Shown here one piece after another: positions 39,902 through 40,178 of a stretch of 64,000 nt of DNA (positions within the stretch are counted from its first letter, which is position 1; each line of letters starts with the position of its first letter). A program made the translations under genes and the position numbers. The notes under the pieces are model-generated. The model was not told the origin of the DNA. It did no database searches and saw only the letters and a program-made list of their open reading frames with translations. The DNA is from Oleiphilaceae bacterium (GTDB lineage Bacteria > Pseudomonadota > Gammaproteobacteria > Pseudomonadales > Oleiphilaceae): contig JAWWAC010000011.1 in assembly GCA_033721915.1 (NCBI GenBank), positions 1,131 through 65,130 on the forward strand, read 5' to 3'.

Positions 39902-39973
39902 AAAGCCCAAAGCCCAAAGCCCAAAGCCCAAAGCCCAAGGGCCAAGGGCCAAGGGCCAAGGGCCCAAGGGCCC
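39902..39973 (+). repeat. Two abutting heptanucleotide microsatellites, (AAAGCCC)x5 then (AAGGGCC)x4, followed by two 8-9-nt variants
   Basis: Read directly: AAAGCCC x5 (39902..39936), AAGGGCC x4 (39937..39964), then CAAGGGCC, CAAGGGCCC. Confidence 0.9.
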
Positions 39974-39975
39974 AA

Positions 39976-40178
39976 GGACAGGCCCAAGGACAGGCACAGT
40001 CCAAAAGAGGACGCATCATCCTCAAATAACTCGCGAAGCACCTGGCACAATAACCCTTGGGACAGGCATACACCCGCACGAAGCACCATAAGCCCACTGG
40101 GGCAGGTACTCACATCCAGGACAGGCGCACTTTCGGGACAGGCACACTTTCGGACAGGCACACTTTCGGGACAGGCAC
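39976..40178 (+). repeat. Cluster C of the GGGACAGGCAC word (4 exact plus 4 variant copies, + orientation) including a 16-17-nt tandem
   Basis: GGACAGGCCC at 39976, exact at 39988, GGACAGGCAT at 40060, GGGGCAGGTAC at 40099, GGACAGGCGC at 40119, and exact at 40136, 40152 and 40169. Positions 40119..40178 form GGACAGGCRCACTTTCG units in tandem. Confidence 0.9.

Follow-up and report, generated by a model that had tools for sequence, protein, structure and literature searches.

Heptamer microsatellites upstream of a tetR operon as probable stutter products of a 10-mer repeat associated with subclass 2.3 Y1 transposases

The window analyzed here is a stretch of 64,000 nucleotides. It comes from a metagenome-assembled Oleiphilaceae bacterium, on a scaffold of 357 kb, and contains a run of short tandem repeats between SCO1 and a tetR-MFP-RND-hydrolase operon (Table 1). 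The original prediction described heptamer blocks followed by a motif array at 39902-40178, and TRF returned four tandem arrays at exactly these coordinates. This description was further confirmed by an independent assembly, a Logan contig from run SRR21430010, which has the same sequence from inside the first tract to tetR. The heptamer tracts are not an assembly artefact. The Logan contig ends within (AAAGCCC)n which agrees with the looping of a k=31 graph by a perfect 35-nt repeat. Repeat numbers given here are those of one MAG consensus, and a locus-specific scan of JGI metagenomes gave no match to a second strain at the SCO1-tetR locus.

Table 1. Coordinates of the features in the window.
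Feature	Position	Strand	Remarks
Motif copy, then two degenerate 15-nt repeats (motif + spacer, GACATGCACCCCAAT)	4656..4702	-	Downstream of tRNA gene
Sister array, 7 motif copies	21137..21334	+	Copies 19-45 nt apart; upstream of gene starting 21378
Sister array, 4 copies plus degenerate copies	28265..28454	-	CTCAACA x2 adjoins one copy
SCO1	39141-39794		Upstream neighbor of repeat region
Heptamer microsatellite (AAAGCCC)x5.3	39902-39938	+	TRF: period 7, 100% match
CCAAGGG x5.9	39935-39977	+	TRF: period 7, 97% match
12-nt unit GGCCCAAGGACA x2.2	39969-39995	+	TRF: period 12, 100% match
Solitary motif copy GGACAGGCAT	40060-40069	+	In ~120-nt gap between arrays
Degenerate motif copy GGGCAGGTAC	40100-40109	+	In ~120-nt gap between arrays
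17-nt unit GGACAGGCACACTTTCG x3.6	40119-40178	+	TRF: period 17, 93% match
Predicted tetR promoter/operator	40201..40244	+	Block conserved in three-species alignment
tetR-MFP-RND-hydrolase operon	starts 40267		Downstream neighbor of repeat region
Motif array, 3 copies	46061..46156	+	Antisense to transposase, 176-262 bp past its stop
Y1 HUH transposase, assigned by sequence to TnpA_Y1 subclass 2.3, 321 aa	46330..47295	-	~6 kb from heptamer tracts
Sister array, 3 copies	50432..50507	+	CGGTGTTT x2.6 adjoins last copy

Perfect 7-nt microsatellites had been called rare, and the relatives bear this out: their loci (1.43 Mb) contain one perfect tandem repeat with a period of 5-9 and at least four copies, versus two adjacent ones at the SCO1-tetR locus alone. 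Given that perfect short-period repeats are so rare in relatives, the SCO1-tetR tracts are real and far beyond chance. Among 305 loci, the AAAGCCC tract was seen at 39902-39938 alone, and the CCAAGGG tract is likewise unique to the SCO1-tetR locus.

The commonest 10-mer of the window is GGACAGGCAC, hereafter the motif, with 25 copies at a density of about one per 2.5 kb. The sequence GGACAGGC occurs 40 times in the window, compared to 5.2 ± 2.1 expected. Eighteen of the 25 motif copies fall outside ORF calls, while the non-coding share of the window is 15%. Three more copies (50432-50477) lie within a doubtful GTG ORF, such that 18-21 of the 25 are non-coding. There are at least five intergenic arrays, beginning at 21137, 28265, 39976, 46061, and 50432, with irregular spacing of 12-72 nt, and seven of the eight intergenic tandem-repeat loci of the window touch a motif copy. 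In the SCO1-tetR spacer, the CCAAGGG tract is made up of four units of 7 nt and then two of 8 nt (CAAGGGCC). The 12-nt units (39969..39997, plus strand) hold the first two motif copies, GGACAGGCCC at 39976 and GGACAGGCAC at 39988, and the 17-nt unit is the motif plus a 6-7 nt spacer, with four motif copies in its array. The original prediction overlooked the full copy and the degenerate copy in the gap of about 120 nt.

Full 10-mers also occur inside protein-coding ORFs, at 8302, 8504, 41217, 42894, 47810, and 50002. Five of these six are on the sense strand, four of them in frame as GGA-CAG-GCA-C (Gly-Gln-Ala). Between co-directional genes, the motif is on the sense strand at all five intergenic loci of the window, whereas co-directional spacers of the wider data set, with crude gene calls, gave 4 sense versus 9 antisense. 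A general sense-strand (transcription-coupled) rule, true in the window, fails in the wider set and was dropped. The one-mismatch variant GGACATGCAC appears at window 4656-4690 and in different genera (L305:11160-11180 and L306:6235-6250), and the degenerate units at window 4656-4699 are this variant. The variant may be tolerated or may serve as an alternative version of the motif.

There are no inverted repeats in 39795-40266, and the motif is not palindromic. DNA around motif copies folds no better than shuffles, with the exception that the GGGCC/GGCCC microsatellite pairs with itself. Rfam searches of the whole window at gathering thresholds and of the region at E ≤ 1 found only a tRNA elsewhere. 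Scans of five arrays for sigma-70 promoters and terminators found nothing consistent, and a literature search on the motif string returned nothing relevant, only human primers and similar. A sigma-54 promoter, Chi/KOPS, and a CsrA site were rejected by inspection, on spacing or orientation. Copy-and-paste of entire spacers between arrays was rejected because none are shared beyond ~5 nt next to the motif. In 80 loci of the nearest genomes to hand, from Halovibrio, Marinobacter, Pseudomonas, and others, the motif has zero copies.

The sole terminator-like hairpin after SCO1, at 39821-39845 (within 39811-39866), is G+C-rich, is in minus-strand orientation, and has 11-nt direct repeats CCGATAAAAAA and CCGTTAAAAAA on either side. 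Its T-run is on the minus strand and therefore in terminator orientation for a strand without a nearby gene. The hairpin could be a small inserted element or the remnant of a bidirectional terminator.

The gene order CyoE-SCO1-TetR-MFP-RND-hydrolase is common to Halovibrio salipaludis and a related MAG, wherein the SCO1-tetR spacer is only ~90 bp and the ~20-kb loci contain zero 10-mers and no transposase. The three-species alignment has a conserved block that we predict to be the tetR promoter, with a -35 element TTGTAG (40203-40208) and a -10 element TATCAT (40226-40231) separated by a 17-bp spacer. Aligned variants across species are TTGTAG/TTGCCG at -35 and TATCAT/TACAAT at -10. An operator-like palindrome, ATGACTGAAGTTCAT-atc-ATGACCGCCGGTCAC (40212-40244), overlaps the promoter elements within this block, and the predicted tetR start site is near 40238. 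A simple sigma-70 scanner missed the promoter because its -35 element matches only 3 of 6 positions.

The original prediction placed the repeats within the promoter/leader of the tetR operon and proposed that changes in repeat number alter the spacing of promoter elements. Neither proposal agrees with the three-species comparison. The predicted promoter/operator lies wholly downstream of the repeats, with the conserved block beginning 25 bp past the last one, which implies that a change in repeat number cannot alter the spacing of its -35 and -10 elements. A promoter downstream of all repeats had been named in advance as the arrangement that would speak against a switch, and it is the arrangement predicted by comparison. 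By the same comparison, the tracts are not inside a promoter spacer, a 5' coding region, or a spacing-sensitive element. Judged from the alignment, the repeats at 39902-40178 are an insertion upstream of the predicted tetR promoter and probably not a gene on/off switch.

How the blocks relate to each other is suggested by the flanks of the motif. In this genome, the motif is repeatedly preceded by the 5' flank CCAAG, which also stands directly before GGACAGGCAC at 21187 and 21254. The heptamer CCAAGGG joins this flank to the opening GG of the motif, CAAGGGCC corresponds to CAAGGACAGGCC with 4 nt removed, and AAAGCCC differs from AAGGGCC at two positions. The original proposal that the blocks grade into each other as edited versions is upheld in that CCAAGGG and CAAGGGCC derive from the flank and motif. 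By this derivation, the heptamers (CCAAG + GG) are flank stutter of the motif array, and the (AAAGCCC) block is the outermost and most diverged stutter block.

Similar stutter recurs elsewhere. Tandem flank-only or truncated-motif units occur at the 5' edges of arrays in L209, L282, L255, L248, L302, and L307. In the window, the array at 46061..46156 has stutters of its own flank (TAAAGACA/TAAAGCA/TAAAG-GACAGGCAC and two copies of GGCACTGCAAT), with flank-only or truncated-motif units at 46096-46141. Short-period tandem repeats are common beside arrays. Hexamers of the 5' flank without the motif numbered 75 on the 5' side of arrays versus 28 on the 3' side, while control hexamers of the 3' flank were symmetric (41 versus 33). 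This asymmetry is modest, and the numbers on both sides are raised by L222 and L237, two tandem arrays that are probably unrelated. The recurrence of 5'-edge stutter in unrelated hosts makes the grading of blocks a hallmark of the repeat family. Together with the edited blocks, it makes local duplication the best reading of array growth, in support of the duplication originally proposed. At 741-1168, locus L260 has 43 tandem units of GGAGAGGCAC, a variant with one mismatch, interspersed with exact GGACAGGCAC copies, and is an extreme motif-derived satellite expansion.

The transposase gene near the tracts is intact and convergent with the hydrolase gene of the tetR operon. Its product has the motifs N70-H71-Y72-H73, W162-E163, and Y183-VDLNP, found in the translation as VMPNHYHLVV, GHFWEARF, and AYVDLNPIRA. 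The criteria for TnpA_Y1 subclass 2.3 are NHYH, WE, and YVDLNP (Quentin et al. 2018, Table 1, PMC6006769); all three signatures are present in the window protein and invariant in 45 homologues. Subclass 2.3 proteins are ~325 aa (median), with insertions in the core, a long C-terminal tail, and a Y1 HUH fold (PMC6006769), and the 321 aa of the window protein agree with this length. Pfam Y1_Tnp scored 24.8 bits, above its cut-off of 23, and NCBIfam REP_Tyr_transpos scored 42.3 bits, under its equivalog cut-off of 80. The top PDB fold match of an AF2 model (pLDDT 78, pTM 0.81) was E. coli TnpA_REP (4ER8, E 6.6e-5). Matches to 4ER8 and to IS200/IS605 TnpA span the core only, with TM scores of 0.62 (target-normalized) and 0.34 (query-normalized). 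Based on its signatures, the window protein belongs to TnpA_Y1 subclass 2.3.

Subclass 2.3 branches from within subclass 2.1 and numbers thousands of Y1 transposases in Chromatiales, Alteromonadales, and Marinobacter-like bacteria (PMC6006769). It was described as having no identifiable associated repeat and no assigned function (Quentin et al. 2018, PMC6006769), and we found no later papers on subclass 2.3 in the searchable literature.

Public metagenomes were scanned for three copies of the 10-mer, resulting in at least 120 stretches. Most of the matches listed were regular tandem repeats, and about 25 of those listed were irregular arrays with flanks of their own, on contigs whose G+C content is 41-68%. 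In Pfam searches with the largest ORFs of five array contigs, three contigs showed a weak IS200-like Y1 domain. Homologues of the window protein were recovered by tblastn from 20 of the 120 stretches listed, at 25-63% identity, compared to a single 58-aa fragment in the controls (80 relatives' loci of 1.43 Mb plus 96 viral loci of 0.85 Mb). Inverted flanking motif copies were also present in most metagenome loci with the gene, among the matches listed. Since the metagenome matches were picked by the exact 10-mer, part of the core conservation among their hosts follows from that selection.

This ascertainment is countered by a reverse test of six homologues from six genera, chosen by protein similarity alone: Marinobacter CP085217, Oleiphilus messinensis CP021425, Ectothiorhodospira BSL-9 CP011994, Neptuniibacter marinus, Arsukibacterium, and Exilibacterium. 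In all six loci the exact 10-mer was within ~75-350 bp of the gene, where chance would give ~0.04 copies per 21 kb. A sense 10-mer lies 75-105 bp before the start codon in five of the six, followed by a TTGACA-containing segment. An antisense 10-mer lies ~180-350 bp downstream in four of the six, and the other two have one-mismatch copies there. The core motif stays the same between hosts, at protein identities of 25-60%. This two-way association and inverted layout suggest that the motif is probably the cognate flanking repeat of the subclass 2.3 Y1 HUH transposase. For the window transposase, which is the presumed partner of the motif, the downstream antisense flank is the array at 46061-46156. 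The expected sense copy upstream is missing, and the region upstream keeps a promoter-like ATTGACAGT segment known from other genera.

These observations lead us to an explanation in which the 277-bp feature would be a lineage-specific expansion of ~380 bp in a SCO1-tetR spacer that is normally ~90 bp, built from copies of GGACAGGCAC and their stutter derivatives. The motif would be the cognate flanking repeat of TnpA_Y1 subclass 2.3, represented by the intact gene at 46330-47295(-). The gene layout across genera would resemble a REPtron or TIRtron, with a sense motif ~75-105 bp upstream and an antisense motif ~180-350 bp downstream. Solo motif copies would have multiplied in certain hosts, this MAG among them, to form same-orientation arrays at many intergenic sites. 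Arrays would grow locally by short tandem duplications with junctions in or beside the motif, and duplication at the 5' edge would leave the 5' flank repeated in tandem, in some cases together with the first bases of the motif. At the SCO1-tetR locus, (CCAAGGG)n may have drifted and then re-expanded to (AAAGCCC)5. We infer that the enzyme binds and nicks the motif in single-stranded DNA, and that either the HUH nick with its free 3'-OH or a fork stalled by bound protein promotes slipped resynthesis 5' of the motif. The array would presumably have no designed regulatory role at tetR. We are confident, if short of certain, that the feature is a motif and stutter expansion of the flanking repeat of a subclass 2.3 transposase. 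The odds seem even that subclass 2.3 recognizes the conserved non-palindromic 10-nt GGACAGGCAC and seeds arrays of uniform orientation, which then lengthen through nick- or stall-primed stutter.

The closest named system is the REPtron, which comprises a RAYT/TnpA_REP gene and REP/BIME/REPIN repeats (Nunvar 2010; Bertels & Rainey 2011; Ton-Hoang 2012; Corneloup 2021, PMC8266576). As in REPtrons, a low-copy Y1 HUH transposase gene lies between inverted copies of a short repeat, the repeat is also dense and dispersed in extragenic DNA, often in clusters, and E. coli TnpA_REP is the closest match to the window protein in structure. Inverted flanking repeats are present in all six protein-chosen loci, and the window has the downstream side only. 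In contrast to REPtrons, the repeat here is 10 nt, non-palindromic, and without a hairpin or a GTAG or CGTC tag, such that the extragenic palindrome with a GTAG/CGTC tag is lacking. The clusters are in the same orientation with irregular spacers, rather than alternating BIMEs or inverted REPIN doublets, and the protein is twice as long with extra domains. Moreover, the core motif is constant across hosts, whereas REPs co-diverge with their RAYT.

TIRtrons are also comparable (Di Nocera et al. 2013, PMC3733652). There, Y1 genes lie between non-REP inverted repeats, and some TIR families occur as scattered single copies, dimers, or groups. The TIRYTs are mostly of TnpA_Y1 subclass 2.1, and many TIRs share GGGGWSAS. 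The motif copies have the form (G/A)GGACAGGCAC, position -1 being G in 21 of 40. GGGGACAG fits the GGGGWSAS consensus, the form of TIR used for comparison, and this consensus overlaps (G)GGGACAGGCAC. As described (PMC3733652), TIRYT proteins differ in having HTH/DnaA_C-like tails, not the insertions and tail of subclass 2.3, TIR families are moderately abundant, and arrays with flank-stutter microsatellites are not among the forms described.

The HUH/Tyr catalytic core is shared with the IS200/IS605 family (IS608, ISDra2). Single-strand nicking that leaves a free 3'-OH is established for that family and would apply here. Unlike the IS200/IS605 family, we saw no subterminal hairpins with a tetra- or pentanucleotide cleavage site and no tnpB, which is frequent in that family. 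Characterized Y1 enzymes recognize hairpins, while the motif here forms none consistently. Cyanobacterial STRR are genome-wide heptamer repeat families and likewise have tandem 7-nt units in intergenic DNA. Here, by contrast, the heptamers are confined to a single locus, and it is a 10-mer that is dispersed.

We considered three other explanations for the tracts. One possibility is that the heptamers form a contingency locus, wherein slippage tunes or phase-varies the tetR-MFP-RND-hydrolase operon. Upstream 7-bp repeats modulate expression of the H. influenzae hmw genes (hmw1A/hmw2A), and this precedent for tandem heptamers upstream of a gene is joined here by the rarity of perfect heptamer tracts in these genomes and by their position upstream of tetR. 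However, the tracts begin 290-365 bp upstream of the tetR ATG, and the predicted promoter/operator that is conserved with relatives lies wholly past them. They are also short, with only 5 and 4 units, and they precede a conserved promoter instead of lying inside it or past it, which distinguishes them from the hmw1A/hmw2A tracts. Arrays of like kind adjoin unrelated housekeeping genes. The tracts would moreover be the by-product of a genome-wide repeat family, another difference from hmw1A/hmw2A. Alternatively, the tracts might be ordinary slipped-strand microsatellites, with the motif abundant as a nucleoid or regulatory site or DNA uptake sequence and its link to the transposase incidental. 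The density of about one copy per 2.5 kb is compatible with this explanation, as are the lineage-specific occurrence of the motif among close relatives and its presence inside genes. A DNA uptake sequence would be expected to be an over-represented 9-12-mer at about one copy per kb, with a link to a competence receptor and none to a transposase. Yet the over-represented motif is physically and phylogenetically tied to the Y1 transposase gene, in an association that is two-way and keeps to one inverted geometry. Same-orientation arrays and flank stutters are not known from uptake sequences, and the motif string had no relevant match in the literature. We consider the incidental link very unlikely, and the contingency locus slightly less likely still.

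An explanation at the RNA level, in which transcribed arrays serve as protein-binding sites in UTRs, such as a sponge of the GGA-containing CsrA/RsmA type, would fit several features of the window. Every motif copy contains GGA, the sense strand carries the motif at 5/5 co-directional intergenic loci and in 5/6 coding copies, and read-through past SCO1 is possible given that the only terminator-like hairpin lacks a plus-strand U-tract. These features are outweighed by the excess of antisense copies in co-directional spacers of the wider set (4 sense versus 9 antisense, by crude gene calls), by copies downstream of the transposase being antisense to it, and by the RNA itself. There was no Rfam match even at E ≤ 1, and the spacer RNA folds no better than shuffles (z = -1.15), its sole feature being GCCC/GGGC pairing between the two microsatellites. 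A CsrB/RsmY-type sponge RNA would be expected to match a known RNA family and to expose its GGA motifs in hairpin loops, and the spacer has neither a family match nor a significant fold. We regard this as the least likely of the three.

If subclass 2.3 does recognize the 10-mer and seed arrays that grow by such stutter, REP-like repeats would be generated independently of hairpins, with microsatellites left as a footprint, and a hitherto orphan HUH family would gain a DNA partner. The candidate substrate for subclass 2.3 is precise, comprising the 10-mer, its orientation relative to the gene, and the array architecture, which makes the question directly testable with oligonucleotide cleavage assays. 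The flanking-repeat explanation would account for dense intergenic motif arrays in genomes carrying such transposases, for rare perfect microsatellites in these genomes, and for breaks in short-read assemblies around the transposase genes. It also implies that such microsatellites should not be annotated as phase-variation switches. A large share of the contigs carrying a homologue are just 1-2 kb long, suggesting short-read assemblies routinely break in the flanking arrays.

Several minor observations concern repeats and genes in other loci. In two sister-species loci with SCO1 at least 90% identical (L180:1015-1138 and L181:995-1154), the sequence downstream of SCO1 is unrelated and rich in a different motif, CCACGGAA/TTCCGTGG, in both orientations, and both contigs end there. 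It may represent another lineage-specific repeat family. The window shows no enrichment of CCACGGAA. A viral scan for three copies of the 8-mer gave 96 matches, nearly all of them regular collagen-like tandem repeats, and was uninformative. Several transposase paralogues lie within 10 kb in Ectothiorhodospira sp. BSL-9 (L304, 728-10954), interleaved with toxin-antitoxin genes, and in Neptuniibacter marinus (L305, 5950-10969), among group II intron reverse transcriptases. These paralogue clusters fit the multi-copy, recently spreading behavior reported for subclass 2.3.
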